Shown: in pieces, positions 2,286 through 30,690 of the stretch
Position numbering within the stretch: position 1 is the first letter of the stretch
Layout of the letters: each line of letters begins with the position of its first letter
IMG/VR virus record: IMGVR_UViG_2645727743_000020
Location: 1 to 37,319 of that record
Length of the DNA stretch: 37,319 nt
Origin: a virus
Lineage: Duplodnaviria > Heunggongvirae > Uroviricota > Caudoviricetes
Strand: one strand, 5' to 3'
The notes under the pieces: model-generated
The model's input: the letters and a program-made list of their open reading frames with translations, nothing else
What the model was told of the DNA's origin: nothing
The model's database searches: none
Made by a program: the position numbers and the translations under genes

Positions 2286-3395
2286 TCACTCTGTTTCTGC
2301 TATCCATTCCGGGATTTTTGCTTCAAGCTCAAGCCGCGTGGTAAAACCGCTGTTATCAATAGAGTGCTCCGCTTTTGCAATAATCCAGTCCTGATTATCA
2401 ATGTCGCTTTTGAAGCCTGTCACCGTGCCATGCATTTCGGGGTAGAGTTCTGCGCGGCCACGCGCCAGCGTGATGGAAAAAGATGCCGCTCCGCGCTGTA
2501 GCTGCTGCCACTTTGCAGCTGCTGCGCGCCTTGCTGCCTGCTCGTTCTGATAAGTCTTGCGTAACACAAACACATTGCCTTCCGCGCCTTCCATATAATC
2601 ACCTTCACGGCTGCTGCTTTTCTCCTTTTTGGGTTTTGGCGGTTTGCGGCGTTTCACGCTGACTTTTTTCTTTTTCCCGTAATTAAGATCAAGCCAGTAA
2701 GCGCGTACCCCCGTATACGCCTCGCGGTCAGCAATGCGGAACTGATGGCGATCGCCGCTGCTGCGTGTGATGGCGAACGATGGCAACGGCTGGCCCTGTG
2801 CGTTCACGCCACCGCCGGGCATGATGAATAACAGATTACCGCTTTTTACCGTGGTGATTGCGCCCAGCATTTCCGCCATGCGCGTAAGGAAGGACATGTC
2901 GCTTTCTTCAGTCTGGTCGGCGTGGTCGATTTCGATATCCATCAGCATTTCGCTGATTTGCGGTTTCAGACCATACCGATGAGCGATGGCGGATACCACA
3001 CGCTCAATGGTCACATCATGCCAGGACACCTCACGTTTAACGTTAAATTCATCCCGAAAATCTGCGCTTCTGGCTGAAACAGTCAGCCTGTCCGGCGGTC
3101 CTTCGTGAGCGATTTCATCAACAATGTAAGTGCCTTTTTCTGTCAGTGGTTCTCCTTTCCAGCCAATGAGAACCGTCAGGCGCGCGCCCCGTGGCGGTAG
3201 CTGCAACTGACCATCCGCATCATCCAGCGTGATGGTGAGCTGGTCCGCCTCAAATCCCCGGTTGTCGGTCAGTGACAGGCTCATCAGGCGCTCGGCCACG
3301 CCTGACAGCGTTTTACCCTCCGCGAGAATATCAAAATCCGGCATTTTCACGGGGTCTGTGCCCTGACTGAGCAATTGCATGGTGGTGTCGGTCAT
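2286..3395 (-). CDS. D: Tail protein D (late control gene D homolog)
   Basis: 369 aa from ATG 3395 with GGGAGGGAA SD; track ORF extends to 3527 but has no better start; length and position match P2 gpD. Confidence 0.85.
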   Translation of the reverse strand: MTDTTMQLLSQGTDPVKMPDFDILAEGKTLSGVAERLMSLSLTDNRGFEADQLTITLDDADGQLQLPPRGARLTVLIGWKGEPLTEKGTYIVDEIAHEGPPDRLTVSARSADFRDEFNVKREVSWHDVTIERVVSAIAHRYGLKPQISEMLMDIEIDHADQTEESDMSFLTRMAEMLGAITTVKSGNLLFIMPGGGVNAQGQPLPSFAITRSSGDRHQFRIADREAYTGVRAYWLDLNYGKKKKVSVKRRKPPKPKKEKSSSREGDYMEGAEGNVFVLRKTYQNEQAARRAAAAKWQQLQRGAASFSITLARGRAELYPEMHGTVTGFKSDIDNQDWIIAKAEHSIDNSGFTTRLELEAKIPEWIAETE

Positions 3396-3552
3396 CTGTT
3401 CCCTCCCTGTGCGGCATGGTCGCATGTGCGTGCGGAGGGGGTTACTGCTTTTTGTTGTCGCCGTGGCGGGAGAACGGCGCAGGGGTGAGATTACGCGCGT
3501 GGTGGGTGATGATTGTTGCCGAATCATTTAACGGATACAAGGGGCTGAAGCT

Positions 3553-5249: not shown

Positions 5250-5303
5250 TAAGTAATATGCAGGCGGCGCAGTGCGTCGCCTCTGACTGAAAGGAGTTTC
5301 CTG

Positions 5304-5669
5304 ATGAAAGAGACGAAAAACATCGATACCGAAAACACGGTAGTTACTGACACTGTGAAAGAAACCAGTGAGCGTGGCGTAAAACTTACCCAACCAATTG
5401 AGCGAGGCGGCGAAAAAATCACGTATGTGGAGATCACCGGGGCTATTGAGCAGGCTGGATCTCTGCGAGATTTGTCGCTGTCTGATGTGCTGAATCTGAA
5501 AGCGGAATCCATGTTTACGCTGCTGTCACGCGTGACATCACCGCGACTGGATGAAGTGACGATCAAAAAAATGGCATCCCGTGACTTTATTCAGTTATGT
5601 GTGGTTGCCGTAAATTTTTTGAGCGGTGCGGACTCTGGCGGGAAGAACGAACAGGCGACGGAAGCCTGA
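5304..5669 (+). CDS. E: Tail assembly chaperone E
   Basis: 121 aa, directly upstream of the tape-measure gene; contains the slippery heptamer. Confidence 0.85.
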   Translation: MKETKNIDTENTVVTDTVKETSERGVKLTQPIERGGEKITYVEITGAIEQAGSLRDLSLSDVLNLKAESMFTLLSRVTSPRLDEVTIKKMASRDFIQLCVVAVNFLSGADSGGKNEQATEA

Positions 5670-5833
5670 TCACGGTTGTGTGCTTTGAGCACATAGAAGA
5701 CTTTGTGGCTGATATTGCCGCCATTTTTAACTGGTCGCCCGCCGAAATCTTCATGATGACGCCCGGCGAAGTGGTTAGCTGGCGTGAGCGGGCGGCACTT
5801 CGCAGCGGGAATGCAGACAATGAAGACTCTTGA
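5304..5833 (+). CDS. E': Tail assembly chaperone E+E' made by programmed -1 frameshift
   Basis: Slippery T TTT TTG at 5615..5621 in the E frame; the -1 frame continues open to 5833 (track ORF 5597..5833 is the E' part); same arrangement as P2 E/E'. Confidence 0.7.
5615..5621 (+). promoter_or_regulatory. Programmed -1 ribosomal frameshift slippery heptamer (TTTTTTG)
   Basis: Codons AAT TTT TTG in the E frame verified against the E C-terminus VAVNFLSG; -1 slip gives FFERCGLW, which matches the overlapping ORF. Confidence 0.7.
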
Positions 5834-8627
5834 TATCCGGGTCGCTTTCAGCGCCGTTGACAGGCTGACCCGGCCTGCCGAAAACGCCCGCCGCCTGATG
5901 GGGCAGTTTGGTGACTCCATCCAGCGAACGCAGGGGGCGATCAAAAATCTCGAGCGTCAGGCGCGATCATTTGAGCGCGCCCACGACGCTGTCAGTAAAG
6001 CGGATGCTGGCATCGTGAAAGCACGACGCCAGCTTAACGCCCTTAATCAGTTACAACGCACGGGTACAGTGCTCAGCGAAAAACAACAAAAGCTGATGCA
6101 GCAGTTAAGCACCCGGCTTGAACGCCTGAATGAATCGCGCACACGGGAAATTCAGAAAATGCGGGAACTTGGCGGAGAGCTGAAACGCCACGGCATTTCC
6201 CTGACAGGCAGCGATAACACAATCCAGCAGGCCATCAGACGCACCGAACAGTACAACAACCAACTTGAACGCGAACGGCAGGCGCTTGCGCGTGTAACGC
6301 GGGCGCGTGAGCGGTATTCGCGCGCGCAGGAAACCGCGGGAAAACTGAAAACAGGTGGTGCGCTGGCAATTGGTGCTGCAGCGGCTGGCGGCTATGCTGC
6401 CGGGCGTTTTTTGCAGCCTGCGATCGGGTTCGGCAAAGAGATGTCCCGCGTTCAGGCACTGACGCGAATCGACAAAAACAGCCCGCAGTTTAAGGCGCTG
6501 CGTGAGCAGGCGTTAAAACTTGGTTCTGAAACACAGTTTACTGCGAGTGATGCCGCCAGTGGGCAGAGCTTTCTGGCAATGGCTGGTTTTACTCCGCAGG
6601 CCATTCAGGCCGCATTGCCCGGTGTTCTTAATATGGCGCTGGCAGGTGGCGTCGAACTCGGCGAGACGGCGGATATAGGCTCCAATATCCTCACACAGTT
6701 CAACCTGACAGCCGATCAAATGGACCGGGTTGGCGATACGCTGACAGCGGCATTCACCCGGACCAATACTGATTTACGCGCGCTGGGCGAAACCATGAAG
6801 TATACCGGTCCGGTTGCCGCAAAACTTGGTATCAGTCTTGAAGAAGCGGCAGCCATGGCCGGGATGCTTGCCAATAATGGTCTTCGTGGAAGCGATGCTG
6901 GTACGGCCATGCGCGCAAGTCTGTCCCGCCTTGCATCACCGCCAAAAGCTGCGGCTGATGCGCTGAAAGAGCTGGGGGTGTCAGTTGCTGACGCCAGAGG
7001 CAAAATGCGCCCGATGGAGGATGTGCTGCTTGATCTCTATAAGGCGACACAAAAATACGGACAGGTGGACCAGGTCTCCTTCTTCAAGGACATCGCCGGA
7101 GAAGAGGCGTTCGTTGGTTTGCAGACGCTTGTTGCGGCGGCTGGTTCAGGAGAGCTGCAAAAACTGACCAGAGAATTGCAGGGGGCAAGGGGAGAGGCCG
7201 ATCGCGTTGCAAAAGTAATGGCCGATAATCTTGATGGGGACCTGAAAAATCTCGACAGCGCATGGGAAGGTCTTCGTATTCGCATCAGTGATCTGGTTGA
7301 CGGTCCGCTGCGTTCTGTCACGCAGTGGCTCACGCGGGTGCTTGAAAAAATCACCTCGCTGGCGCAGGCCCATCCGGTACTGACGCGCCAGCTACTGATA
7401 GCAGGCGGTGCGTTGCTGGCAATGACTGCAACGATTGGCTCGTTGTCGCTGGTTATTGGGGTGCTTTACGGGAAGCTGGCCACCCTGCGTCTTGGTTTTG
7501 ACATTCTTACCCGGTCAATGAATGTCGTCAGGGTGTTGCCTGCGCTGTGGGGAATGGTGACGGGTTCCGTTTCTTTGCTGGGAGGCGCTATCGGGGCGCT
7601 GTTCAGTCCGGTTGGTCTTATCGTGGCTGCGCTTGCCGGAGCTGCCGTTCTTATCTGGAAATATTGGGATCCCATCAGGGCATTTTTTGCCGGGTTGTTC
7701 AGCGGGATTATGGAAAGGCTGAACCCGTTGCGTGAAACCTTTGAACGGTTTGGTCCTGTTTTTGACGCAATCGGAAGCGGGATCAGCCAGGTGTTTAACT
7801 GGTTTAAATCGCTGCTGTCACCGATGGAGTCCAGCAAGGAAACGCTGGATAAATGTACCAGTGCTGGCGAGATATTCGGTAACGCTCTTGGTGGCGCGCT
7901 ACAGCTTGTTCTGACGCCTGCAAAAATGTTGCTGGATACGCTGGCGTGGATACTTGAAAAACTCGGTGTGCTTCCGGATGAAGCGGAAAGGGCGAGAAAG
8001 AAAATCGAAGACGCACAGCGTGCGGCCATTCTTCAGGACAAGGTTGCTCTGTTTCAGGGAGACATTGCGAAAATCAATCCGCCGAGGTCTGCGGAAAATG
8101 GCAATGGCACCGGAGGCGATAAACCCAAAGACAACAAACCGCTCACAGACAGCAATACCGGCACGCTACGCAGACTCAGCAAAATTGCTGATAACACAGG
8201 TAAGCTGGTTGATGAGACAAAAAAACGTATTGGCCCCGGCGATATTGTCTTTAAGAACCTGCCCCGCGCACTTGCTGTTCGTGGGGAGTGGCAGGAGCGG
8301 AAGATTGCACAGGTCAGTAAGCCTGCCCCCGCAATGAATATCACCCCCGTGGTCCCGGCTCCGCTGCCTCCGGCGCTGGTCCCTGTTGTTGCGGCCAGCT
8401 CCCGCCCGGTGGCGGAGGCCATACGATCTCCAGTGGCATCAGTTCCTGTAACTTCCCGTAACCGGGAGCCTGTTGCCTCCAGATTTGGTGGTGAAATTCA
8501 TGTTCATCTGCATAACGTTGTTACGCAGAATCCCCGCGAACTGGCGAAACTGGTCGGTGAAATGGTCAGGGCAGAAATGGAACGGCGCGCCCGTGCCGGG
8601 CGTGGCAGTTTTTACGATAAAGATTGA
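5820..8627 (+). CDS. T: Tail tape measure protein T
   Basis: Long Ala/Gly/Leu-rich protein with coiled-coil N-terminus and hydrophobic central segment; start set at ATG 5820 (MKTLDIRV) just before the E' stop; track offers GTG 5784 and ATG 5811 as alternatives. Confidence 0.85.
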   Translation: MKTLDIRVAFSAVDRLTRPAENARRLMGQFGDSIQRTQGAIKNLERQARSFERAHDAVSKADAGIVKARRQLNALNQLQRTGTVLSEKQQKLMQQLSTRLERLNESRTREIQKMRELGGELKRHGISLTGSDNTIQQAIRRTEQYNNQLERERQALARVTRARERYSRAQETAGKLKTGGALAIGAAAAGGYAAGRFLQPAIGFGKEMSRVQALTRIDKNSPQFKALREQALKLGSETQFTASDAASGQSFLAMAGFTPQAIQAALPGVLNMALAGGVELGETADIGSNILTQFNLTADQMDRVGDTLTAAFTRTNTDLRALGETMKYTGPVAAKLGISLEEAAAMAGMLANNGLRGSDAGTAMRASLSRLASPPKAAADALKELGVSVADARGKMRPMEDVLLDLYKATQKYGQVDQVSFFKDIAGEEAFVGLQTLVAAAGSGELQKLTRELQGARGEADRVAKVMADNLDGDLKNLDSAWEGLRIRISDLVDGPLRSVTQWLTRVLEKITSLAQAHPVLTRQLLIAGGALLAMTATIGSLSLVIGVLYGKLATLRLGFDILTRSMNVVRVLPALWGMVTGSVSLLGGAIGALFSPVGLIVAALAGAAVLIWKYWDPIRAFFAGLFSGIMERLNPLRETFERFGPVFDAIGSGISQVFNWFKSLLSPMESSKETLDKCTSAGEIFGNALGGALQLVLTPAKMLLDTLAWILEKLGVLPDEAERARKKIEDAQRAAILQDKVALFQGDIAKINPPRSAENGNGTGGDKPKDNKPLTDSNTGTLRRLSKIADNTGKLVDETKKRIGPGDIVFKNLPRALAVRGEWQERKIAQVSKPAPAMNITPVVPAPLPPALVPVVAASSRPVAEAIRSPVASVPVTSRNREPVASRFGGEIHVHLHNVVTQNPRELAKLVGEMVRAEMERRARAGRGSFYDKD

Positions 8628-8633
8628 GGAGTC

Positions 8634-9128
8634 ATGGCCATGATGATGATCTACGGCATGTTTGTTTTTGAGCTGCGCACGCTGCCGCATCAGCAGTTAC
8701 AGCAAAACAAAAGCTGGCGGCATGTGAAAAATGAACGCGTTAACCGTTCAGCAAGCTGGCAGTATATCGGTGCAGGTGATGATCGCATCGTTCTTTCTGG
8801 TGTGCTTTATCCTGAAATTACAGGTGGCGAAGTGTCGCTGTCGCTGCTGACCACGCAGGCGTATACAGGACGACCCTGGCCTTTGATTGATGGCGTCGGG
8901 CAGATTTACGGCATGTATGTCCTGACTGGAACGAATACGACCCGTTCCGAGTTTGATCGCTACGGTAAGGCGAAAAAGATAGAATTTTCACTGACCCTTG
9001 AACGCTGTGATGAGGATTTGCGGGAGCGCCTGCAATCCTCATCGTTCAGTGATATGCTGTCCGGCTTCAAAGATAAGGTCACATCATCCCTTAACAGCGC
9101 GGCCAGCTCCGTTAAAGGGCTGTTTTGA
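8634..9128 (+). CDS. U: Tail protein U
   Basis: 164 aa (P2 U about 159 aa), YGMFVFELRTLPHQ N-terminus, immediately after T. Confidence 0.85.
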   Translation: MAMMMIYGMFVFELRTLPHQQLQQNKSWRHVKNERVNRSASWQYIGAGDDRIVLSGVLYPEITGGEVSLSLLTTQAYTGRPWPLIDGVGQIYGMYVLTGTNTTRSEFDRYGKAKKIEFSLTLERCDEDLRERLQSSSFSDMLSGFKDKVTSSLNSAASSVKGLF

Positions 9129-9154
9129 TTAACGCAAAACCGCTAATGGTCAGA

Positions 9155-9754
9155 TTAGTGGTTTTCATTTTCCTGAGTCTGCCTGGTTGTTTCTTCAGCC
9201 TGTATATCGCCTACAGGGTGATAACGATAAATCGTCGATATGCCGATGTCGTAAATGATCGCCAGTTGTTTTCTGTCATGACCGTTTTTGATCAGCCTTG
9301 CTATTTGCTCATGCTGTTCTTTTGTCAGCTTCGGGCGACGTCCGCCTGTGCGCCCCCGTGCGCGCGCTGCCGCCAGTCCGGCCAGTGTACGTTCAACAAT
9401 TAATTCACGTTCCATTTCAGCCAGGGCACCCATCACGTGGAAGAAAAAACGCCCCATTGGAGAAGATGTATCTATGCTGTCGGTCAGACTGCGAAAATTA
9501 ATCCCTCGCTCCCGTAGTTCTCCGACGAGAGAAATCAGATGTTTCATGCTTCGCCCAAGGCGATCCAGTTTCCAGACAACCAGCGTGTCACCTTTTTGAA
9601 GCCGCTTTAAAGCGCGTTTTAATCCCGGTCGGTCTGTCTTTGTCCCGCTTAATTTATCTTCAAATATTTGTTCACATCCTGCACAAACAAGAGCGTTTCG
9701 TTGCAGGTCTGTATTCTGGTCATTTGTTGATACCCTTACATAACCAATCAGCAC
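9155..9754 (-). CDS. Serine DNA invertase, Gin/Pin/Cin/Hin family
   Basis: VLIGYVRVSTNDQNTDLQRNAL N-terminus with catalytic Ser and a C-terminal HTH; start placed at GTG 9754, which reproduces the Gin/Hin N-terminus (track ORF begins at TTG 9772). Confidence 0.9.
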   Translation of the reverse strand: MLIGYVRVSTNDQNTDLQRNALVCAGCEQIFEDKLSGTKTDRPGLKRALKRLQKGDTLVVWKLDRLGRSMKHLISLVGELRERGINFRSLTDSIDTSSPMGRFFFHVMGALAEMERELIVERTLAGLAAARARGRTGGRRPKLTKEQHEQIARLIKNGHDRKQLAIIYDIGISTIYRYHPVGDIQAEETTRQTQENENH

Positions 9755-9808
9755 ACTGAATCTCCCGTCCAAAAGCGCAAATCATGCCATGCAGGCCGGA
9801 AACGGCCA

Positions 9809-9834
9809 TTATCTAAAACCTCGGTTTACAGGAA
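9809..9834. repeat. gix-like invertase crossover site, left
   Basis: TTATCTAAAACCTCGGTTTACAGGAA, a 26-bp two-half-site sequence with central GA; inverted repeat of 12881..12906 (23/26 identical). Confidence 0.8.
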
Positions 9835-10842
9835 ACGGTAAACAGGGCCAGGAACGCCGTGCAAAAGAATGGCGATACCTTGTCCGGTGGGCTTACTTTT
9901 GAAAACGACTCAATCCTTGCCTGGATTAGAAATACTGACTGGGCAAAGATTGGTTTTAAAAATAATGCCGACAGCGACACTGATTCATACATGTGGTTTG
10001 AAACAGGCGACAACGGCAATGAATATTTCAAATGGAGAAGCCGCCAGAGCACCACAACAAAAGACCTGATGACTCTTAAATGGGATGCTTTGTCTGTCCT
10101 TGTTAAAGTCCTTTTCAGCAGTGAAGTAAAAATATCGACAGTCAATGCACTGAGGATATTTAATTCATCTTTTGGTGCTATTTTTCGTCGTTCTGAAGAA
10201 TGCCTGCATATCATCCCTACACGAGAGAATGAGGGAGAAAATGGTGATATAGGGCCACTACGCCCCTTTACGCTTAATCTCAGAACTGGTCGGATAAGCA
10301 TGGGGCATGGTCTTGATGTTACAGGGGATATATTTGCAAACCGTTTTGCAATTAACAGTAGTACCGGCATGTGGATTCATATGCGTGACCAGAATGTTAT
10401 TTTGGGACGCAATGCGGTATCCACCGATGGTGCACAGGCATTACTTCGTCAGGACCATGCTGATCGCAAATTTATGATTGGTGGACTGGGAAATAAGCAA
10501 TTTGGCATCTACATGATTAATAACTCAAGGACAGCCAATGGCACCGATGGTCAGGCGTACATGGATAATAACGGGAACTGGCTTTGCGGCTCGCAAGTTA
10601 TTCCCGGCAACTATGGCAATTTTGATTCCAGATATGTGAAAGATGTTCGACTTGGTTCACAGCAATATTATGGAGTGAACAACTGGCAAACATGGAATTT
10701 CCAGTGCCCGTCAGGTCATGTATTGTCTGGTATTAATGTTCAGGATACAGGGTCCAACTCTGCCGATAATATAGCGGGCGTTTATTACAGACCCGTTCAA
10801 AAGTATATAAATGGCACCTGGTATAATGTAGCGAGCGTTTAA
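9835..10842 (+). CDS. Alternative tail-fibre C-terminal cassette (Sv'), promoterless in this orientation
   Basis: Open frame begins inside the left gix site and encodes [19 protein letters not shown]..., i.e. the same junction residues as H at the right site (LGLQETVN); ends ...[12 protein letters not shown] like the H C-terminus; track ORF 9859..10842. Confidence 0.75.
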
Positions 10843-10843
10843 T

Positions 10844-11371
10844 ATGATGCACTTAAAGAACATAAAAGCGGGTAACGCTAAAACACTGGAACAGTATGAG
10901 TTAACAAAGAAACACGGAGTTATCTGGCTTTACTCTGAGGACGGAAAAAACTGGTATGAGGAAGTGAAAAACTTTCAGCCAGACACAATAAAGATTGTTT
11001 ACGATGCAAATAATATTATTGTCGCCATCACTAAAGATGCCTCCACGCTTAACCCTGAAGGTTTTAGCGTCGTTGAGGTTCCCGATATAACAGCCAACCG
11101 CCGCGCTGATGATTCAGGAAAGTGGATGTTTAAGGATGGAGCTGTAGTTAAACGGATTTATACGGCAGACGAACAGCAACAACAAGCCGAATCACAAAAG
11201 GCCGCATTGCTTTCCGAAGCTGAATCAGTCATTCAGCCGCTGGAACGCGCTGTCAGGCTGAATATGGCAACAGACGAGGAACGCACACGACTGGAAGCAT
11301 GGGAACGCTACAGTGTTCTGGTCAGCCGTGTGGATACGGCAAATCCTGAATGGCCACAAAAGCCTGAGTAA
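10844..11371 (+). CDS. Tail fibre assembly protein, partner of the silent Sv' cassette
   Basis: 175 aa; N-terminal 110 aa closely similar to the 11400..11933 product (MMHLKNI.AGN.KT.EQY.LTK...[23 protein letters not shown]), divergent C-terminus. Confidence 0.85.
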
Positions 11372-11376
11372 AAATT

Positions 11377-11396
11377 AAGGCCCGATATCGGGCCTT
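11377..11396. terminator. Perfect 20-bp palindrome between the convergent tfa genes (putative bidirectional terminator)
   Basis: AAGGCCCGATATCGGGCCTT lies between the stops at 11369..11371 and 11400..11402, flanked by A/T runs. Confidence 0.5.
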
Positions 11397-11399
11397 CTC

Positions 11400-11933
11400 T
11401 CATTCTGGTTGTTCGGGAAACGTTACTGGCAGGCTGGAAGTGTCTGTAGATTCGACTTTCTGCGCAAAGAGCATCCACTCTGTTAATTTTTGTTTATTCT
11501 CGTCGGAAATGATGCCCAGCCGTAGCTGTGAGTCCCATAGCTGGGTTTTATCCCTGACGAGCTGTAGCAGGTTTTGCTTTTCATTTTCCGCCTGCTGCCT
11601 CTGCTCTTCCTCGGTATAAGTTCGCTTTACCACTACGCCATCTTTGAACATCCATTTACCCGAAATGTCAGCACGGCGATTTGCTGTAATATCAGGTAAT
11701 TCAACGACGCTTGCGCCTTCCGGATTAATTGCTGAAACATCCTTTTCAATACAAATAATAACGCCGTTATGGTCATAGACCATTTTCAAAGTGTCTGGCT
11801 GGAAATTCTTTTGTTCCTCATACCAGTTTTTTCCATCCTCTGAATAAAGCCATTTGATGTTAAATTGTTTCGTTAGCTGGTATTGCTCTTTTGTTTTAGG
11901 GTTGCCAGCAGTAATGTTTTTTAAGTGCATCAT
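11400..11933 (-). CDS. G: Tail fibre assembly protein G (expressed orientation)
   Basis: 177 aa directly downstream of H on the same strand. Confidence 0.85.
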   Translation of the reverse strand: MMHLKNITAGNPKTKEQYQLTKQFNIKWLYSEDGKNWYEEQKNFQPDTLKMVYDHNGVIICIEKDVSAINPEGASVVELPDITANRRADISGKWMFKDGVVVKRTYTEEEQRQQAENEKQNLLQLVRDKTQLWDSQLRLGIISDENKQKLTEWMLFAQKVESTDTSSLPVTFPEQPE

Positions 11934-11935
11934 CG

Positions 11936-14038
11936 TTAAATACTCCCCGCGTTATACCACGTCCCATTAATGCAATACTGAATTGGCCTTGCCTGAGTTG
12001 TATCAATTAATTCATCACGGTTTCCGTTAACTGAACCCGTAACGACATAACCTGACCTGTCAGACCAGCCGGGACCATTCCATGTCTGAACAGATGACAG
12101 ACCGCCAAGGCGAATACCTGTAATAAACCTTGAGTTACATTCTGCCTGCGTGTATGCACCAACATCTCCCGCAGAGGGTTTGCGGGTCGTGGTGTAAAAC
12201 TCTGACCAGTCAGCCTCAAATCCATAACCATCACGCGCTGAACGATAAAAAATACCGCCGTTCCTGTAATTCACGCGGAACTGTACAGCAGGGCAGCTCC
12301 CCGTATTCATATTGAAGTGGAGGATTAATGTCGATGCGCCACCAATGTTTGCGTTATAGACCCCGCTATTCCAGTTCCAGCCAACAGCTTTATCATTTCC
12401 GACAGTGCTTCCTGTTTGCCCTAAAGCAAATGCAGGTTGTTGATTTTTCGTGTTGTAGTCTCGTCGCCAGCCAGGAGCGTAAGCATCACCATGATTAATA
12501 TAAGTGAATTGAGCGTTAGTAATTCCGCCACCGCTGGACGTGCTCGGCGTGGTAACGCGTATGGTCATTGCGCCGCGAGTGCCAATAACTTCCACCACAG
12601 CACCTGCAAGACAAATATTTCCGCAACCTGTATCTGTAATGACCTTATTATTTGCATAAGCCCATGAGCCTTTGCACATCCAGTAAGGATGGTTAAATGC
12701 TCCCTGACTCTCCAGCCACGAAATAAATTGCGCGGTTGTCCAGACCTGACTATCGCCACCAATATTCAGCCATGAGCTATATGCGCGGCAGGCACCAATA
12801 TTTTTGGTGAAGGTATCTTTCCCCGGAATATCTGCGCCGTTCTGGTTTTTCTGTAATGCGCCAGAAGCCTGATTTACCGTTTCCTGTAAACCGAGGTATT
12901 CGATAACAGCGGCAACGGTCGATTTCGCAAGAATATCCCGCCCGACTTCTGTCAGGGTTGCCAGACTGGCAACATCATTCCCCGTAAAATACGGAAACCT
13001 GTCTGCCGCAGTAGCAAGCCCGGCCAGCGCCGTCAGGGTGGCATCTTTCGGTTGCTTACCCGCAAGCGCGTTAGTCATGGTGGTCGCAAAATTCGGGTCG
13101 TTGCCCAGCGCCGCCGCCAGCTCGTTCAGCGTGTTCAGTGCGTCAGGTGAAGAGTCTACAAGTGCGGCAATCGCGGCCATAACGAAAGCCGTGCTTGCGA
13201 TTTGGGTATTATTCGTTCCCTGTTGTGCAGTTGGTGTTGTTGGCGTTCCGGTCAGTGCCGGGCTGTTTAATGGGGCTTTCTTGTTCGTTTCATCCATTAC
13301 CGCCTTAACCGCTTTTGGTGTCGCTGCCAGCGTTTCAGACGTGCTGTTGGTTGCACTGCTGAGCTGGACTATCCCTTTTCGTGCCGTCGTGGCGTCCTGA
13401 GCGGTATATTTTCCGTTAGCCAGGTCATACGCGGCCTTAACCGCTTTCGGCGTTGCGGCCAGCGTTTCAGAATCGCTGTTAGTGGCGCTACTGAGTTGAA
13501 CAAAGCCTTTTGCGGTCAGCGAGGCATCCGGGTGACGTCGTGACTGTTCATGCTCTTTCAGTTTGTCATCCACGTAATCCACTGTGGCCATCACCATGGT
13601 GTTATCCACGGTAAGCGCCACGGTGGCAGTGCTGGATACGGTTAGAATGGTGCGAAATGTTTGTGCACGTCCGGACCCCTCGGCAACGGTTGGCTTGTAA
13701 CTTTCGGCAGTATTGCCCACCGCGATTAAATCGCCGTGCTCATCAAATACACCAATTTCCCGGATCCAGAATCCGCCCGTTTCAGGAGGAATAACCAGCT
13801 CCGCAATAATGCGGTTCTGATGTGTTGCGTCCAGGATGACGCGATTAACAGTGTGTCGCCACACCTCATGCACCAGACGGGTCTGCTTACTGTCTGGTGT
13901 GGGCAACGTGCCGCCACCGTCGCCCACGGCCATATGAGTCAGGCGGACAGGCTTACCATCTGGCGCGGCTGCCTGAGCTAATTTTTTTGCACCCGTATCG
14001 GTGATAACGGTTTTAAATTTTCGTGTTGTGGTACTCAT
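11936..14038 (-). CDS. H: Tail fibre protein H (constant N-terminus plus currently expressed variable C-terminus)
   Basis: 700 aa (P2 H about 669 aa) with Ala/Thr-rich repeats; right gix site falls at about residues 378-386. Confidence 0.9.
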   Translation of the reverse strand: MSTTTRKFKTVITDTGAKKLAQAAAPDGKPVRLTHMAVGDGGGTLPTPDSKQTRLVHEVWRHTVNRVILDATHQNRIIAELVIPPETGGFWIREIGVFDEHGDLIAVGNTAESYKPTVAEGSGRAQTFRTILTVSSTATVALTVDNTMVMATVDYVDDKLKEHEQSRRHPDASLTAKGFVQLSSATNSDSETLAATPKAVKAAYDLANGKYTAQDATTARKGIVQLSSATNSTSETLAATPKAVKAVMDETNKKAPLNSPALTGTPTTPTAQQGTNNTQIASTAFVMAAIAALVDSSPDALNTLNELAAALGNDPNFATTMTNALAGKQPKDATLTALAGLATAADRFPYFTGNDVASLATLTEVGRDILAKSTVAAVIEYLGLQETVNQASGALQKNQNGADIPGKDTFTKNIGACRAYSSWLNIGGDSQVWTTAQFISWLESQGAFNHPYWMCKGSWAYANNKVITDTGCGNICLAGAVVEVIGTRGAMTIRVTTPSTSSGGGITNAQFTYINHGDAYAPGWRRDYNTKNQQPAFALGQTGSTVGNDKAVGWNWNSGVYNANIGGASTLILHFNMNTGSCPAVQFRVNYRNGGIFYRSARDGYGFEADWSEFYTTTRKPSAGDVGAYTQAECNSRFITGIRLGGLSSVQTWNGPGWSDRSGYVVTGSVNGNRDELIDTTQARPIQYCINGTWYNAGSI
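12881..12906. repeat. gix-like invertase crossover site, right (inside H)
   Basis: TTCCTGTAAACCGAGGTATTCGATAA, inverted relative to 9809..9834; encodes AVIEYLGLQE in the H frame. Confidence 0.8.
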
Positions 14039-25299: not shown

Positions 25300-25723
25300 C
25301 TCTCCAGCTCCTGTATCAATCAGATAATTTCACGACGCTTTTCTGCTTATTGCCATCATCGGCGGTCAGACTCTTACGCAATCCCACCGCGTTGACTGCA
25401 TGTTCTTCGCCGCCTCAGTGCGATTTTGACGGCCTTACCTTTCACCCCATCAAATCAGAATCCCTCACGTATTTTTCACGCTCAGCGTGAGAAATACAGC
25501 CATTCTGTTGTGTCTCTGCGACATCGTTCAGGGAATGCTATTTACCCCCTGAAACGCGGGCTGTTCCCCCGTCACCTGCGCGCAGAAAAAGCGCGTTTTT
25601 TTGTGCACGCACGGATCCCTGACGGATCCAGCCGCCACGCGGGCCAGAAGGGCAAAAATTCGTTCAAAAAAATTGTGCAAATTTGTGCACTATCGTGCAT
25701 GTAAATTCATAAAAAAATTACAG

Positions 25724-25745
25724 AAAAAAGGCCGCTTTCGCGGCC
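25724..25745 (-). terminator. Rho-independent terminator downstream of the AAA+/S8 operon
   Basis: GGCCGC-TTTC-GCGGCC stem-loop followed on the minus strand by a six-U tract, 8 nt after the subtilase stop. Confidence 0.6.
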
Positions 25746-25752
25746 ATAAAAA

Positions 25753-27957
25753 TTACGTGTCGAGAGAAATTTGTGTGCGCAGTTGAATAGGATTCAGAAT
25801 TGTATATCGCTGGCGAATAACATTATATAAATCAAAGTCTTTTACCCTTACGCTTATTACCATCGCATATTGCATATCAGGGGCTGAAACTCCCTTAACA
25901 TGGCGCGAAGAATCTCGGGCATGATACCGTATATCAAAAACTGGATCGCTTAATAATGTATCAGCACTGAACTTTTTGCTTCTGTGCAAACAAGTTTCCC
26001 ACTTATGACCTTCACTCCTACACTCCCTTTCAGTCTTATACTGGCTTTTTTGACCAAAGAAATCATCTGTATCGGTATCGTCAAGGCCGAATCTTGGGCG
26101 GAAAGTTACCTGCATACCGGCCCTTGTATAGTTTACTGAATGTTCAGGATCTACTGGGGTTTGAATGCATAAAGTAGCGGTAAGCTCAAATGCTTCGTCA
26201 AAGGGAACATCAGGGAATGGGATCGGTGCCCTTAAATATTTATTTTTTGCTAATGAACCATAGTAAATTACTGTAGCAGTATCATTTGGACAATCGATTA
26301 AAACGTTAGGATCCTCACTAAACCGTCCCCAACCGATATGTTCACGCGAATATTTTCTTGATGTTTCAGCATGATGAACAAGCAACGCTTTCAATGCAAT
26401 GGTGTTCAATGGAGTTCCTGATAGAGCCGCAACTCCAGCGGCCGTTCTCAATGCTAATGGAGAGGCATAACTGGTTCCTTGAACTCCAACTATAGAACCA
26501 AGCAGAGGGTTGTAAGTGTAAAAAGGCTCGTCGTCGCTTCCACCAAAAATAACACCATCAGGTTTAACGAATCCGGGGCTTCTGCCTGGCCCAATACAGC
26601 TATATGGTGCCCGCCCCCATTTTTCACCGCTACGATCAGCAGCACCAATCGCTAGCGCGTTTACCATATCGGAAGGAGGTTGTATTCTCGCTGCATCACC
26701 GTCCTCATTGCCATCATTCCCAACAGCAACAGTAAGTAATATCCCATGCTTAGCACAGATTTGGTCTAAAACAGCAGTCCATACATGAACCTCATCATCA
26801 CCAATTGGAAGATGAGGACCAATACTTAGATTAGCGAACTTATAGTCACCACTATCAAGAACGGACTGTATTTTCTTAAGGACATCAAATAAATCCCAAT
26901 TGCCATTGTCACCTGATGTCGGTGAAAGAACTCTATAATGATCTACATTCATAAACGGTCTTTTAAAAGAAGGTGCATTTTCCTCGACACGTCCGAATAA
27001 GAAAGTGGATGTCACTTCATTACCGTGCTGCAATAATAATCCGCTTGTTTCTTTGGTGTCTGGATACACGTATTCCGTAACCCAATTACTCAAGTCAGCT
27101 GTCCCCAAGCCACCATCAAAAATGGCAATACGTTCGGATTCAAGAACAGCTTTAGAATTAGGGAGCTCTGGTGTAACTATATTAGATAACTTTCTGACAA
27201 TGTTCGGCTGAGTACACCTGAGAGACGGCATCGGCCGCACAACGCGGATTAATGAAAAATCGAGTGTTTTTTTCATATCTTCAGGTCGCGCGTGTGCAAC
27301 GATGAAAGTCAGCCCACCAACTTGGATTCTACTTTTGTAATCAACAGAGACATCATATTGTGCCGCATAGCTAATATAGGCTTTAACGATATCATCGTCT
27401 TCAACCCCAGCATGAAGAACCACTTCAAATTTTATCAAATCACTTTTCGCATGCTCAAAATTGCGTGCTCTCTCTTTTCCTTCAAAAAAGCTAACACTTT
27501 CAATTTCGATCAAATCCTTTTGTACGCCCTTCGGAGCTGTAGGGGAATTTAAAATTTCCTTAAATCTTATAACGGCATCATCATCACCGCTAACAAACAG
27601 TTGCGCCGTTACTAAGTCCTTATTCTGATCGCACTGACGTGCCGCTTTCCGTGGGCGAATGATTACCTGACGGCTACCGACATCCCGTAAACCTGTCGCT
27701 CTAAGCAATCCTTCCGGAAAGTAGCTTTTACCCAAAAACGCTGGGTGTAAAGTTAAATTGAATACACTCTCCCCCCTTGGCTTAGCCGCATCATCCAAAC
27801 TGCGAAAGCGTGAGAGTAAAGTATCAATCTCTGGGTTTAAATGCTCCCTTACTTCTTCAAGAGTATAGGGATAGCGCTTACCATCCCTTCCTTTAGGCAA
27901 AGGTTCCTTTTTTGTCAGAACATGACCGTTACCTAAAAGTAAGTTCCTTTCCATCAT
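25753..27957 (-). CDS. S8-family subtilisin-like serine protease with a roughly 270-aa N-terminal domain of unknown function (IetS-like candidate)
   Basis: Catalytic triad motifs in order: IAIFDGG (Asp), HGNEVTS (His), GTSYASPLA (Ser, the GTS-x-A-x-P signature); 734 aa; start overlaps the ATPase stop by 4 nt. Confidence 0.85.
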   Translation of the reverse strand: MMERNLLLGNGHVLTKKEPLPKGRDGKRYPYTLEEVREHLNPEIDTLLSRFRSLDDAAKPRGESVFNLTLHPAFLGKSYFPEGLLRATGLRDVGSRQVIIRPRKAARQCDQNKDLVTAQLFVSGDDDAVIRFKEILNSPTAPKGVQKDLIEIESVSFFEGKERARNFEHAKSDLIKFEVVLHAGVEDDDIVKAYISYAAQYDVSVDYKSRIQVGGLTFIVAHARPEDMKKTLDFSLIRVVRPMPSLRCTQPNIVRKLSNIVTPELPNSKAVLESERIAIFDGGLGTADLSNWVTEYVYPDTKETSGLLLQHGNEVTSTFLFGRVEENAPSFKRPFMNVDHYRVLSPTSGDNGNWDLFDVLKKIQSVLDSGDYKFANLSIGPHLPIGDDEVHVWTAVLDQICAKHGILLTVAVGNDGNEDGDAARIQPPSDMVNALAIGAADRSGEKWGRAPYSCIGPGRSPGFVKPDGVIFGGSDDEPFYTYNPLLGSIVGVQGTSYASPLALRTAAGVAALSGTPLNTIALKALLVHHAETSRKYSREHIGWGRFSEDPNVLIDCPNDTATVIYYGSLAKNKYLRAPIPFPDVPFDEAFELTATLCIQTPVDPEHSVNYTRAGMQVTFRPRFGLDDTDTDDFFGQKSQYKTERECRSEGHKWETCLHRSKKFSADTLLSDPVFDIRYHARDSSRHVKGVSAPDMQYAMVISVRVKDFDLYNVIRQRYTILNPIQLRTQISLDT

Positions 27958-29036
27958 TTAATCCCCCACTTTTGTAATTTATTCGCGATTGTTGGATGTG
28001 AAACACCAACTAATTCAGCTATCTTCCTATTTGAAAAACCGTCAAAATGATATTTAATTATATTGAGATCATTATCGCTAAACTCATCCAATGAAACCCT
28101 CTCCGTAATTACGGCTTCTATTAATGAGCTTTCAAATGGAATATTTCTAAGTACCTCATTCTTTTTGGAGAAATTCAAAATACGGTTAATGATGGCAAAG
28201 GACATGCCATCTAATAATGGTGCAAGTTTTTTAGATAGTTCAGGTTCAATATTATGATTGACTAAATATCTATCTATCAGTTCTACTGATGGCATATTAA
28301 ATTTAAGGATGTGCTCAAATCGACGCCAAACAGCCGGATCTAAGATATCAGGGTGATTAGTCGCAGCAACAAGAAGCGAGGTCGCTGGCCACTCATCTAT
28401 GGTCTGTAGGAGTACAGTAACTAAACGTTTTAATTCTCCAACGTCCCTGTCATCATCACGTCTTTTTGCAACAGCATCAAATTCATCAAGCAAAAGGACA
28501 CATGGTTTCTCTTTGGCATAATCCATAACGGATTTAATATTATTACCTGTTTTTCCCAAAAGAGAACTCATTACAGATGAGAGATCCAATGTTAAAAGAG
28601 GTAAATTTAACTTTGCAGCAAGCCAATGTGCGGACATTGTTTTGCCTACGCCTGGCGGGCCAGAAAGTAAAACCGTCTTCACAGGTTCAAGACCAGCTTT
28701 GAACAAAGAAACCGCATTCTCTCTTTCGTTAACAATTGACTCCAGCTTCTTTGAGATATCCGTATTCCATACAGGTTCTTCAACAATTGCGTTGACAGAT
28801 GTTTCCTGCAAAAGGTTTCGTCTGGAGTCTCCATCCACAGGCATAGGAGCCTTACTAGATGCCCCACGTAATACTGTTCCCTCAGCAACTAACGAAGCCA
28901 GCTTAGAAGCTAAAGCCTCATCATTTTTACGGATGTTGTTAATCATCTTTCTGCATAGGAGTGTAAATGCATTTGCGTTGCCTTTGATGCCTTGCTCGAT
29001 GAGTTTGAAAAGTTCATCCTCCCTCACGTTTACCAT
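27954..29036 (-). CDS. AAA+ ATPase with C-terminal LuxR/sigma-70 region-4-like HTH (IetA-like candidate)
   Basis: Walker A GPPGVGKT, Walker B VLLLDEFD, sensor/arginine-finger ATNHPDILDPAVWRRF; C-terminal NRKIAELVGVSHPTIANKLQKWGI; ATG 29036 with GGGGG SD. Confidence 0.85.
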   Translation of the reverse strand: MVNVREDELFKLIEQGIKGNANAFTLLCRKMINNIRKNDEALASKLASLVAEGTVLRGASSKAPMPVDGDSRRNLLQETSVNAIVEEPVWNTDISKKLESIVNERENAVSLFKAGLEPVKTVLLSGPPGVGKTMSAHWLAAKLNLPLLTLDLSSVMSSLLGKTGNNIKSVMDYAKEKPCVLLLDEFDAVAKRRDDDRDVGELKRLVTVLLQTIDEWPATSLLVAATNHPDILDPAVWRRFEHILKFNMPSVELIDRYLVNHNIEPELSKKLAPLLDGMSFAIINRILNFSKKNEVLRNIPFESSLIEAVITERVSLDEFSDNDLNIIKYHFDGFSNRKIAELVGVSHPTIANKLQKWGIK

Positions 29037-29414
29037 AAAACCCCCAATAAAACATCAGCTTGTGTAAGCTGGTAACTACATTAATGAAAATCATTGACTA
29101 ATGTTACCACTCTTGCTGGCGTAATTCAAAGAGTATCCTCACTTTTTTACTGTATGGATAATCAGCATAAAATCTATCCAGTTGGGTTACTCGAACATAC
29201 TGTCAATACTTGTTTCCAACGATTGATCAGTTCTACAGTTTTATCTCCTTCACTTGTGTTGGCAGCATGCTTATTCCTGAACCAGCTCGATTACTTGGCC
29301 ATTTGAGAAAGATGTGTAGATCTTCTGATGGTTTGTATTGGAACGGGGTGCATAGTGATTTGCACCCCGTTCTTTATGTTATGGGATTGGTGGCAGGGCG
29401 AATACGCCCTGATG

Positions 29415-29726
29415 TTATTCAGGAAATAACGCCCGGATATTTCCGGCCATCTGACTGGTTATCTGTGCGGTTGATACTGGCTGTGACGCGGGGCGTTCTG
29501 TCTTGGTTTGTGTCACTGATAACACCTCATCATCAGCCCATGCAGCCAGTCGGTAAGCCTCTGCCGGATTCATTTTCAGAAGTGCCAGCCCGGCCAGAAA
29601 AGCCACGCGTTGGCCGCTTTTGCGGGCTTCTGGTGTAAGGCTGTCCAGCCAGGCGCATGCTTCTCCTTCGTTCTTGACGGCGGTGGGCTTCAGATAGAAA
29701 CTTATCCGTCTGGTTGGAGTCGTCAT
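29415..29726 (-). CDS. parR: ParR-like centromere-binding adaptor
   Basis: Start ATG 29726, 4 nt after the parM stop with AAGGAG SD; MTTPTRRISFYLKP...LDSLTPEARKSGQRVAFLAGLAL...NIRALFPE parallels R1 ParR (RRTIAFKLNP...LDSIP..ERS..RAALTAGLAL...LRSLFPKE, recalled from memory). Confidence 0.7.
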   Translation of the reverse strand: MTTPTRRISFYLKPTAVKNEGEACAWLDSLTPEARKSGQRVAFLAGLALLKMNPAEAYRLAAWADDEVLSVTQTKTERPASQPVSTAQITSQMAGNIRALFPE

Positions 29727-29730
29727 TGGT

Positions 29731-30690
29731 TTACTCCTTGTCCATTGCGTACAGCCCATTAACCAGAGCAAACTGTGGCACCCCGTCCGCGATGAAAGTC
29801 GCATTAACTCCGCAGGCTTCGCGGATAGCGGGTGCCACAATCTCCGCCCCTCCACCGACAACCATCACCCGCCCGTAACCCGAAAAAACCGCCAGCGCGC
29901 GGATCACGCGTTGTTTCAGTGTTTCTTCCTTTTCACGAATAACCGCCATCAGGCTGGCGTAATGCGCGTCATTGTGGATGTGCTGGCGCAGCCAGGCTTC
30001 ATCATGGCGATGTTCGATAATGGTATTGGCGATGTGGTGACTGGTGCGCATACCGTTAGTGGCCATCACCGACAGTACGGCATCGGCCATCAGAGAAACG
30101 CCTACGTGTGGATCGCAAAACACCTGGCTGATACCTGCCAGTTGCCCCTGAACCTTTGCCACATCCAGCGTGGTTCCGCCCAAATCCACAATCAGCAGGG
30201 ATTCAAACGGACTCATGTCAGCCAGTGCCTTAAAGCCAGCCGGAATGGATTCAGGCATAACCCGCACGTTACGGATAGTGAATGCCTCACCGTTCTGGTA
30301 CTCCACCGGGCGCATAACGTTTGCTTTTTTGCGGTTGATGTTGGCCATGTCCGGCTGGGCGTTAGTGTCGAAATATTCGCTCAGTGGCAGGGTGACAACC
30401 ACATCCACTTCCTGTGGCGTGATGCCTGATTTGACCAGCGCGTGATGAATGGCAATGACATTCACATCGCTGTACTGGTATTGCGTGTCGGTCGTCTGGA
30501 CAAAGCGATCGCTGACCGGATCAAAACCATAGCGCACGCCATCAAGCATGTAGTTCGCAGGCTGCGAGCCACCGAACGGTGCAGACCATTCCGACTTGAA
30601 GCTGTTCGGGCTGATGGCGTTGCGGCGTTCGCCGTTTTCAGTCCATGCCAGCTTGATGTTGGTGGAGCCGTCGTCGATACAAATTTTCAT
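29731..30690 (-). CDS. parM: ParM/StbA-family actin-like segregation ATPase
   Basis: 319 aa; IDDGSTNIKL, ISPNSF, YSDVNV, HHAL, KANVMRPVE, VMPESIPAG, LLIVDLGGTTLD, VVGGGAE, LVNGLY all align with R1 ParM (recalled from memory). Confidence 0.9.
   Translation of the reverse strand: MKICIDDGSTNIKLAWTENGERRNAISPNSFKSEWSAPFGGSQPANYMLDGVRYGFDPVSDRFVQTTDTQYQYSDVNVIAIHHALVKSGITPQEVDVVVTLPLSEYFDTNAQPDMANINRKKANVMRPVEYQNGEAFTIRNVRVMPESIPAGFKALADMSPFESLLIVDLGGTTLDVAKVQGQLAGISQVFCDPHVGVSLMADAVLSVMATNGMRTSHHIANTIIEHRHDEAWLRQHIHNDAHYASLMAVIREKEETLKQRVIRALAVFSGYGRVMVVGGGAEIVAPAIREACGVNATFIADGVPQFALVNGLYAMDKE

Follow-up and report, generated by a model that had tools for sequence, protein, structure and literature searches.

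Described IetAS systems and the P2 cargo site

The closest described relatives of the locus analysed here are the IetAS systems. The founding pair, IetA/IetS of the Agrobacterium plasmid pTiC58 (NC_003065.3, positions 97873-101373), has the ATPase gene directly before the S8 protease gene and was first described as a plasmid-stability toxin-antitoxin, with the protease as the toxin and the ATPase as the antitoxin (Yamamoto 2009, cited in PMC13069673). In homologues, the protease activity is required for defence, and the mechanism of IetAS is stated as unknown (PMC13069673). The ietAS of Bacillus cereus is an abortive-infection system with one single phage protein, yosG of SPbeta, as its trigger (10.1101/2022.08.27.505566). 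In Escherichia coli, a prophage-borne ietAS was cloned and tested by Wu et al.; the ietAS of strain ECOR52 on its own gave limited protection (10.1101/2022.08.21.504612).

Two further systems share the same core. The ietHAS of E. coli E24377A (NC_009801.1, positions 3330029-3336281; Liu et al. 2026, PMC13069673) has been validated as a defence against phages and behaves as a toxin-antitoxin. It has an additional SNF2 helicase, and instead of lying in the P2 hotspot it has an integrase, IS elements and a methyltransferase/helicase pair as neighbours. SgiAT (S026/S025) of Salmonella genomic island 1 is, by its description, an IetAS-type pair of an AAA-ATPase antitoxin and a subtilisin-like toxin; it is a functional toxin-antitoxin in E. 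coli and stabilises the SGI1 island (Huguet et al. 2016, PMC5006074).

The P2 hotspot itself is the cos-proximal region between gpA and gpQ: according to Rousset et al. 2022 (PMC9122126), who defined it, it is enriched in validated anti-phage systems and carries tin and old in P2. Both genes serve lysogenic conversion and exclude other phages, Old being an ATPase-TOPRIM nuclease and Tin an exclusion protein that blocks T-even phages.

Layout of the operon and exchange of the cargo module

The window, i.e. the whole stretch of DNA that we analysed, is the virus record IMGVR_UViG_2645727743_000020 with a length of 37,319 nucleotides. It contains a two-gene operon which very probably encodes an IetAS system, a toxin-antitoxin/abortive-infection module against phages. 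The operon is accessory cargo of an E. coli prophage of the P2 family (P88-like), where it occupies the cos-proximal gpQ-gpA hotspot. ORF calling across the whole window found two genes, ietA and ietS, that overlap by four nucleotides and together cover 25753-29036, exactly as a sequence-only reading of this DNA had proposed; their orientation is to be corrected to the minus strand. The junction reads ...AAATGATGG, with the ATG of ietS sharing four nucleotides with the TGA of ietA, and the same four-nucleotide overlap is present in the annotation of Enterobacter phage phiT5282H. Such an ATGA start/stop overlap implies that translation of ietA and ietS is probably coupled; the starts of both genes are also preceded by a Shine-Dalgarno-like GGGGG run. 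A terminator of the operon's own had been proposed too, and indeed a hairpin followed by a T-run starts 8 nucleotides past the ietS stop codon. The gene layout thus predicts one transcript with coupled translation and its own terminator, and the gene order is that of the ietAS family: the AAA+ ATPase gene is directly upstream of the S8 subtilase gene and both have a common terminator.

Signals upstream of the operon are candidates only (Table 1). A sigma-70 scan identified no site ahead of ietA in the orientation of this gene, and promoter-like sites in the upstream region were not more common than in shuffled sequences. The candidate promoter was found by eye: it matches the consensus at 8 of 12 positions, has in addition the TGn of an extended -10 element, and scores under the threshold of the scanner. 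Its -10 element is overlapped by an imperfect palindrome that may serve as an operator.

Table 1. Coordinates of the ietAS module in the window and of the parts of its two proteins
Feature	Position	Strand	Description
Swappable cargo module	25707..29364		Variable segment of the gpQ-gpA hotspot; blastn against P88 flanks
Intrinsic terminator of the ietAS operon	25730..25745	-	GGCCGCGAAAGCGGCC followed by T-run TTTTTTCTGT; 6 G-C pairs
ietS	25753..27957	-	734 aa; cytoplasmic S8 subtilase; toxin/effector by family
ATGA start/stop overlap	27954..27957	-	4 nt; ORF coordinates and junction sequence
ietA	27954..29036	-	360 aa; AAA+ ATPase, C-terminal HTH; antitoxin/regulator by family
Module-specific upstream region	29037..29364	-	Candidate promoter, palindrome and 5'-UTR hairpin
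Candidate 5'-UTR hairpin	29071-29056		Sequence scan
Imperfect palindrome, putative operator	29078-29104		ACATTAATGAA-n5-TTGACTAATGT; candidate only
Candidate promoter	29129-29124 (-35); 29109-29101 (extended -10)	-	TTGAAT; 17-nt spacer; TGgTAACAT; by eye
IetA, residues	6-52		Helical bundle
IetA, residues	54-71		Disordered linker with invariant PVDGDSRR motif
IetA, residues	~110-250		AAA+ core
IetA, residues	251-316		Lid
IetA, residues	322-356		HTH
IetS, residues	~1-270		N-terminal region, propeptide-like alpha/beta fold
IetS, residues	~272-545		Catalytic domain
IetS, residues	~555-730		C-terminal beta-sandwich

The operon is part of a module of 3.66 kb with sharply defined borders: in blastn comparisons with phage P88, the conserved flanks end at position 25706 (97.3% identity) and resume at position 29365 (95.9% identity). 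The GC content of the module is 41.1%, in comparison to 53.5% and 55.9% of its flanks, and the slot is filled differently in P88, by 706 bp that contain two small genes. Positions 25558-29297 are 95.9% identical to phiT5282H, a member of a different genus (Novemvirus), with the cassette in the same slot (megablast). Among 5426 complete E. coli genomes, the flanks are present in 1115 and the cargo in 32; this agrees with the earlier proposal that P2-like prophages swap cargo at this site. By these sequence comparisons, the cassette is a horizontally exchanged module.

The gene order around the cargo is that of a P88/P2-type prophage: portal (Q), cargo, parR-parM and a gpA-type replication endonuclease. 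The sequence-only reading had placed the operon between cos and the replication region, at the P2 tin/old hotspot. The hotspot is confirmed by its two anchors, portal and gpA, but the immediate right-hand neighbours of the cargo are parR/parM and not the replication gene, and cos was not found: the 19-mer of P2 cos (from NC_001895) has zero matches with up to three mismatches in the window. The best local cos look-alike, at 25558-25576 and identical in 13 of 19 positions, was rejected as it is at chance level (12 such matches, with 7.4 expected from shuffles). The slot between gpA and cos/gpQ is the one that carries old and tin in P2; these are, however, unrelated to IetA/IetS and are transcribed away from cos, while transcription of ietAS runs to the portal side.

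Instead of an intracellular conflict system, the two genes could in principle encode a protease/ATPase for phage morphogenesis or a moron in the form of a secreted virulence protease, but we regard this as extremely improbable. The cargo is missing from about 97% of the prophages with the same flanks, and also from P88 and P2, and is therefore not essential for morphogenesis. Moreover, the operon ends in a terminator of its own and is oriented away from the head operon, and neither IetA nor IetS has a signal peptide or a trans-membrane segment.

Family assignment and protein architecture

The sequence-only reading had compared the pair to IetA/IetS, and searches with the PADLOC profiles (Gao_Iet defence family, Gao et al. 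2020) are positive for both proteins over nearly their full lengths. IetA matches PDLC02196 with an E-value of 3.6e-89 and 297.8 bits (residues 7-356 of 360, profile positions 5-370 of 374) and also three more IetA models; IetS matches PDLC02197 with an E-value of 6.6e-41 and 138.4 bits (residues 22-707 of 734, profile positions 24-718 of 749) and also five more IetS models, with no competing family. The order of the AAA+ ATPase and the S8 protease is the same as in this family and the catalytic residues are intact. The fallback proposal of an uncharacterised ATPase-protease system is not needed with these matches.

In NCBIfam, the top matches of the pair are likewise IteA and IteS, with scores far below the equivalog cutoffs: 253.1 bits for IetA (IteA_antiphage, NF042959; cutoff 510) and 115.7 bits for IetS (IteS_antiphage, NF042956; cutoff 900). 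The pair therefore belongs to a different subclade than the NCBIfam reference, and this is also the reason why RefSeq names the proteins 'AAA family ATPase' and 'S8 family peptidase'.

The comparison with the individual systems gives a similar picture. IetA of pTiC58 is 32% identical to the window IetA (E-value 1e-45), a similarity that takes in the N-terminal helical region and the linker, but with 328 aa it is shorter than the window IetA and lacks its HTH. IetA of E24377A (326 aa, 31% identity) has no HTH either; all three IetA subtypes are 31-32% identical with E-values of about 1e-46, N-terminal region included. The proteases have diverged further. IetS of pTiC58 has 836 aa and no significant BLASTP similarity to the window IetS (E-value 0.33); the two are linked through common PADLOC IetS profiles only, and the best model for pTiC58 IetS is PDLC02198 instead of PDLC02197. 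IetS of E24377A (795 aa) is 22% identical to the window IetS over the catalytic domain, and IteS proteins named by NCBI on plasmids are 21-25% identical. The two genes of pTiC58 are 3 nucleotides apart and do not overlap, and the SNF2 helicase of ietHAS has no counterpart in the window pair. By these sequence differences, the window pair is an HTH-bearing IetA subtype that is distinct from both pTiC58 IetAS and E. coli ietHAS. P2-type prophages carry this subtype, with an IetS of about 734 aa, and so do plasmids of rhizobia, Xanthomonas and Streptomyces; plasmids with homologues of the same subtype come from Agrobacterium, Rhizobium, Xanthomonas, Streptomyces and Plesiomonas.

The missed equivalog cutoffs, the low similarity of the proteases and the absence of an HTH from the IetA proteins of pTiC58 and E24377A could be taken to mean that the pair resembles IetAS in its domain composition only and is a separate, uncharacterised system. 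We consider this highly improbable: it is at odds with the near-full-length matches of both proteins to the PADLOC models and with the similarity between the IetA subtypes, and the founding IetS of pTiC58 scores even lower on the PADLOC IetS models (85.6 bits) than the window IetS does. The pair is also already classed as ietAS by Rousset et al.

IetA has a Pfam match to AAA (PF00004, 9.6e-31), as the earlier assignment to the classic clade of AAA+ ATPases had led us to expect, and the C-terminal HTH proposed with it is recognised as HTH_50 at residues 335-359; here the score of 26.7 bits is slightly below the cutoff of 27 bits, and the residues are invariant among homologues. Walker A (GPPGVGKT, residues 126-133, with K132), Walker B (LLLDE, with D184/E185), the sensor-1 residue N227 and the arginine fingers R238/R239 are invariant in 20 homologues, and so is, in the homologue alignment, the second-region-of-homology (SRH) motif ATNHPDILDPAVWRRF. 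In the alignment with PDB matches, pore loop 1 reads SLLG and has no aromatic residue. The closest solved proteins by sequence are p97/Cdc48/VAT/Rix7 (E-values of about 1e-38), with NSF and PAN also matched. The AF2 model of IetA is confident and its neighbours are AAA+ unfoldases: Foldseek returned p97 D2, Drg1, FIGL-1, FtsH, Vps4, spastin and Rpt subunits. We therefore take IetA to be an intact AAA+ ATPase of the classic clade (p97/FtsH/Vps4-like) with a C-terminal HTH.

IetS matches Peptidase_S8 of Pfam at residues 288-544 (4e-17), and the catalytic triad D281/H311/S496 as well as N414 are invariant in the homologue alignments. The structure model is confident and its neighbours are subtilases; a sequence search of the PDB for an IetS-like structure returned none, with generic subtilases as the only matches (E-values of at least 2e-4). 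The earlier description as a 734-aa S8 protease with an uncharacterised N-terminal domain of 270 aa holds for the protease class and the length, but part of this N-terminus folds like a subtilase propeptide in the predicted structure. IetS is an intact cytoplasmic subtilase, flanked in the predicted structure by a propeptide-like region on its N-terminal side and by a beta-sandwich on its C-terminal side. The C-terminal domain, of about 190 aa, had gone unmentioned in the sequence-only reading.

The identification as IetAS is correct but not new: the same proteins were catalogued in the same hotspot in 2022. Row 7 of Table S5B of Rousset et al. (PMC9122126) gives the name "ietAS (Gao et al, 2020)" to a system of the P2 gpA-gpQ hotspot which, with 400 occurrences, is the 7th most frequent; its IetA is 100% identical to the window IetA over 360 aa and its IetS is identical across the 399 residues that are printed. 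The RefSeq accessions WP_000248600 and WP_000970615, also listed in Table S5, annotate the pair in E. coli VG35A2, which is 100% identical over the locus, and StbA and Plasmid_stab_B are listed at the same locus. Among the systems named as cloned and tested in the accessible part of this paper, ietAS does not appear. The allele tested by Wu et al. differs from the one studied here, since the primers used for cloning from ECOR52 have no match in the window, nor in E24377A. Literature searches turned up neither phage-challenge nor toxicity data on this exact HTH-bearing subtype, and nothing on mechanistic or structural (cryo-EM) studies of the ietAS protease or on the WP accessions. The new detail is modest and consists of the HTH-bearing IetA subtype, the propeptide-like N-terminus of IetS and its C-terminal beta-sandwich.

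Possible mode of action

By analogy with the homologues, IetS would be toxic and neutralised by IetA, and protection from phage would depend on the protease. In an uninfected lysogen, a hexamer of IetA with ATP would keep IetS inactive, either by holding or remodelling it or by keeping the propeptide-like inhibitory domain engaged; the contact to IetS may be made through the N-terminal bundle and the conserved PVDGDSRR linker of IetA. The palindrome across the candidate -10 element may be the site at which the HTH autoregulates the operon. When another phage superinfects, one of its proteins would disable or titrate IetA, and the IetS thus released would cleave essential host or phage proteins and thereby abort the infection. 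ATP-dependent neutralisation, autoinhibition by the propeptide-like region, autoregulation by the HTH and the nature of the trigger are unproven parts of this scheme.

The same toxin-antitoxin logic would also penalise loss of the prophage, and an alternative view is that stabilising the prophage or its excised form is the main task of the pair, as an addiction (post-segregational killing) module, with an anti-phage effect that is secondary or absent. This is possible, but clearly less probable than a role in defence. It would fit the first description of pTiC58 IetAS, the stabilisation of SGI1 by SgiAT upon induced excision (PMC5006074), the plasmid-borne homologues of the same subtype, the position of the cassette next to the parM/parR maintenance genes and the poor protection by ECOR52 ietAS alone (10.1101/2022.08.21.504612). 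On the other hand, the slot is, according to Rousset et al., a hotspot rich in validated anti-phage systems that holds old and tin in P2, and IetAS homologues protect against phage and act as abortive-infection systems. Moreover, addiction and defence are compatible roles, and the difference between the two is a matter of emphasis rather than a true alternative.

Within the preferred assignment to anti-phage IetAS, a more far-reaching and rather doubtful idea is that the subtype with an HTH-bearing IetA and an IetS of about 734 aa forms a mechanistically distinct branch. In this branch, the antitoxin would be a DNA-binding, ATP-dependent AAA+ unfoldase. It would gate a cytoplasmic, zymogen-like subtilase by way of the subtilase's uncleaved propeptide-like domain, and both the trigger and the cleavage targets would be others than in the pTiC58/ietHAS branch.

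As a discovery, the locus adds little: the 2022 catalogue already has the exact proteins at this hotspot under the name ietAS, and PADLOC calls them automatically. Its remaining value is that of a convenient model that is compact, naturally mobile and found in well-studied strains, and the features of the subtype (the HTH of IetA, the propeptide-like region and beta-sandwich of IetS and the very low similarity to the founding IetS) bear on the question of how a protease toxin is kept in check by an AAA+ ATPase. One of the strains that have the module is EPEC E2348/69.

IetAS assignment and subtypes

Both proteins match IetAS profiles of PADLOC-DB over nearly their full lengths: IetA matches PDLC02196 (3.6e-89; residues 7-356, profile positions 5-370 of 374) and IetS matches PDLC02197 (6.6e-41; residues 22-707, profile positions 24-718 of 749). 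Several more IetA and IetS models of PADLOC-DB match the two proteins and no competing PADLOC-DB family matched the IetS protease. The best NCBIfam matches are IteA_antiphage (253 bits, cutoff 510) and IteS_antiphage (116 bits, cutoff 900), far under these equivalog cutoffs; PHROGs has full-length families for both proteins, labelled 'unknown function'.

The identification is already known. In P2-like phages, the gpA-gpQ locus shows 1,650 gene arrangements among 18,150 occurrences, and Rousset et al. 2022 (PMC9122126) define it as a hotspot of defence genes. Their table lists the accessions that RefSeq gives these genes in E. coli VG35A2; the catalogued IetA is identical to the window IetA over 360 residues, the catalogued IetS over the 399 residues printed. 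With this entry and the near-full-length profile matches, the IetAS identity proposed in an earlier sequence-only reading is correct. The fallback of that reading, an uncharacterised ATPase-protease system unrelated to IetAS, is unlikely given these same matches and the homology between the IetA proteins.

The founding pair of pTiC58 (NC_003065.3, 97873-101373) has a 328-aa IetA without HTH that is 32% identical to the window IetA (E 1e-45), and an 836-aa IetS with no significant BLASTP similarity to the window IetS (E 0.33) and PDLC02198 as best PADLOC model (85.6 bits). The locus of E. coli E24377A belongs to the ietHAS type of Liu et al. 2026 (PMC13069673); its 326-aa IetA and 795-aa IetS are 31% and 22% identical to the window proteins, and NCBI-named IteS proteins are only 21-25% identical to the window IetS. 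Members of the window subtype, with a C-terminal extension of IetA, an IetS of about 735 aa and PDLC02196/02197 as best models, are found on plasmids of Agrobacterium, Rhizobium, Xanthomonas, Streptomyces and Plesiomonas (35-85% identity). Judged by these sequence comparisons, the window ietAS is a distinct HTH-bearing subtype within a very heterogeneous family.

In E24377A (NC_009801.1, 3330029-3340792), a SNF2 helicase, IetA and IetS are directly followed by a DNA methyltransferase and a DEAD/DEAH helicase, a layout that may explain the co-localisation of RM III and ietAS reported by Wu et al. (10.1101/2022.08.21.504612).

The ietAS operon and its prophage slot

ORF calls and the junction sequence (AAATGATGG) agree with the two genes and the 4-nt overlap of the sequence-only reading, the ATG of ietS sharing 4 nt with the TGA of ietA; the terminator it assigned to the pair is present too. 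A GGGGG run lies 5' of both start codons. The palindrome upstream of ietA overlaps a candidate extended -10 element, picked by eye, and could be an operator for the IetA HTH.

Features of the ietAS locus and of other, possibly variable regions in the window
Feature	Position	Strand	Remarks
Two adjacent ORFs, 185 and 195 aa	905-2052	-	41-43% GC stretch beside gpD (2286..3527, -)
Serine invertase, Hin/Gin/Cin-type	9155..9772	-	Resolvase 1.3e-50, HTH_7
Alternative tail-fibre C-terminal ORF	9859..10842	+	Gp34_trimer; with the next gene, beside invertase
Tail-fibre assembly gene	10844..11371	+	
Second tail-fibre assembly gene	11400..11933	-	faced, like the tail fibre gene, by the 9155-11371 genes
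Tail fibre gene	11936..14038	-	
Hairpin with T-run	25578-25596	+	GCGCGCAGAAAAAGCGCGT; downstream of portal gene
G+C-rich hairpin with T-run	25745-25730	-	8 nt past ietS stop codon
ietS, 734 aa	25753..27957	-	ORF call
ietA, 360 aa	27954..29036	-	ORF call
IetA linker, residues 54-72	~28821-28877	-	
6-bp hairpin, ietA 5' UTR	29056-29071		CAGCTTACACAAGCTG; 20 nt ahead of start codon
Imperfect palindrome	29078-29104		ACATTAATGAA-n5-TTGACTAATGT; upstream of ietA
Perfect 12-bp inverted repeat	29340-29373		GAACGGGGTGCA / TGCACCCCGTTC; immediately downstream of parR
parR and parM/StbA	29415-30690	-	Plasmid_stab_B, 6.7e-24 (parR); between cargo and gpA of integrated P2-type prophage

The 4.4 kb around ietAS are 100% identical to E. 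coli VG35A2, where the genes are annotated in the order terminase, portal, S8 peptidase, AAA ATPase, Plasmid_stab_B (parR), ParM and a replication endonuclease of the gpA type, followed by early genes, repressor/integrase and the host gene yhbY. The prophage is assigned to the P2 family, P88 (Xuanwuvirus) type, and Wu et al. also describe ietAS of E. coli as prophage-borne. Homology between phage P88 and the window ends at 25706 and restarts at 29365, the P88 slot holding 706 bp with two small genes; the swapped module is therefore 25707-29364. The GC content of the ietAS segment is 41.1%, versus 53.5% and 55.9% in its flanks. Of 5426 complete E. coli genomes, 1115 have the flanks and only 32 (EPEC E2348/69 included) the cargo, 31 of these at least 99% identical. 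Enterobacter phage phiT5282H, of another genus (Novemvirus), has a 95.9%-identical cassette in the same portal-gpA slot (window 25558-29297, phage segment 6001-9746), which points to recent exchange of the cassette across phage genera.

In P2, the slot contains orf91, tin and old and adjoins cosR. The sequence-only reading had placed the pair between cos and the replication region: the portal/gpA slot stands as that of P2 tin/old, while cos could not be located, the P2 cos 19-mer being absent from the window and the best look-alike scoring at chance level.

Two strong hairpins, both in conserved DNA, bracket the module. The right boundary (29365) falls within the second arm (29361-29372) of the 12-bp inverted repeat, and the left edge of phiT5282H homology is 148 bp inside the P88-conserved region. 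The Rousset table counts parR/parM within the hotspot.

Anatomy and function of IetA and IetS

The ATPase-HTH and S8 protease architecture of the sequence-only reading is borne out by Pfam (AAA PF00004, 9.6e-31; Peptidase_S8, 4e-17, residues 288-544), with the C-terminal HTH_50 just below its cutoff (26.7 versus 27 bits). Among 20 IetA homologues (49-91% identity), Walker A GPPGVGKT (126-133), Walker B D184/E185, sensor-1 N227, the SRH arginines R238/R239, the pore-loop region VMSSLLGKTG and eight HTH residues (G333, S335, R337, I339, A340, H347, P348, T349) are invariant. The nearest relatives of IetA are classic-clade AAA+ ATPases, both by sequence (p97, Cdc48, VAT, Rix7, NSF, PAN) and by fold (p97 D2, Drg1, FIGL-1, FtsH, Vps4, spastin, proteasomal Rpt subunits); these families form hexamers that act on protein substrates by threading or remodelling them. 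The AF2 model (pLDDT 77) has a three-helix bundle (6-52), the AAA+ core, the lid and the HTH (322-356). Disorder is predicted for linker 54-71 (pLDDT < 50), yet its PVDGDSRR motif (66-72) is invariant; residues 54-72 might bind IetS or act as a pseudosubstrate. A similar 'AP-x-P-[VI]' stretch is seen in alignments of pTiC58 and E24377A IetA.

In 30 IetS homologues (41-85% identity, all about 730 aa), D281 (FDGG), H311 (HG), N414 (GNDG) and S496 (GTSxxxP) are invariant, as are many residues of the first 270 aa and the last 190 aa. The conserved N-terminus had been called uncharacterised; from whole-chain inference, we read part of it as a subtilase-propeptide-like alpha/beta unit with an additional N-terminal extension, and the C-terminus is modelled as a beta-sandwich. 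IetS has no signal peptide or TM segment; together with the patchy distribution and the autonomous operon, this rules out a morphogenetic or secreted protease.

For homologues, PMC13069673 (citing Yamamoto 2009) describes IetS as toxin and IetA as antitoxin; construction of ietA mutants was impossible, which fits the antitoxin role, defence required protease activity, and the mechanism is explicitly termed unknown. The ietAS of B. cereus shows abortive-infection behaviour triggered by the SPbeta protein YosG (10.1101/2022.08.27.505566), and ECOR52 ietAS protects weakly alone and acts in synergy with Zorya II against T3 (Wu et al.). The ECOR52 cloning primers have no match in the window, so no direct test of the HTH-bearing subtype was found. 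The pair may plausibly serve chiefly as a prophage-stabilising toxin-antitoxin, a role compatible with defence: relatives are plasmid-borne, parMR is adjacent, and SgiAT of SGI1, which works as a toxin-antitoxin pair in E. coli, stabilises its island (PMC5006074). For defence by ietAS, we propose that an ATP-driven IetA hexamer would hold a zymogen-like IetS inactive, with the HTH autoregulating the operon, possibly at the palindrome over the candidate extended -10; a phage protein would disable or titrate IetA, and free IetS would then kill the infected cell.

Other possible variable regions of the prophage

Window 9155-14038 looks like an invertible segment for host range, of the Mu G / P1 C type. 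Beyond the queried 4.4 kb, the window is not colinear with VG35A2, with an 830-bp coordinate shift between the tail sheath gene and ietS; VG35A2 has a family-9 glycosyltransferase (4756-5934 of the compared segment) in place of the invertase segment (~9100-11400), which suggests that prophages of this lineage have a second variable slot. The two ORFs beside gpD have no Pfam match; one weakly matches phrog_289 ('GTP-binding domain', 3e-07), and the pair may represent additional cargo or the edge of the prophage.
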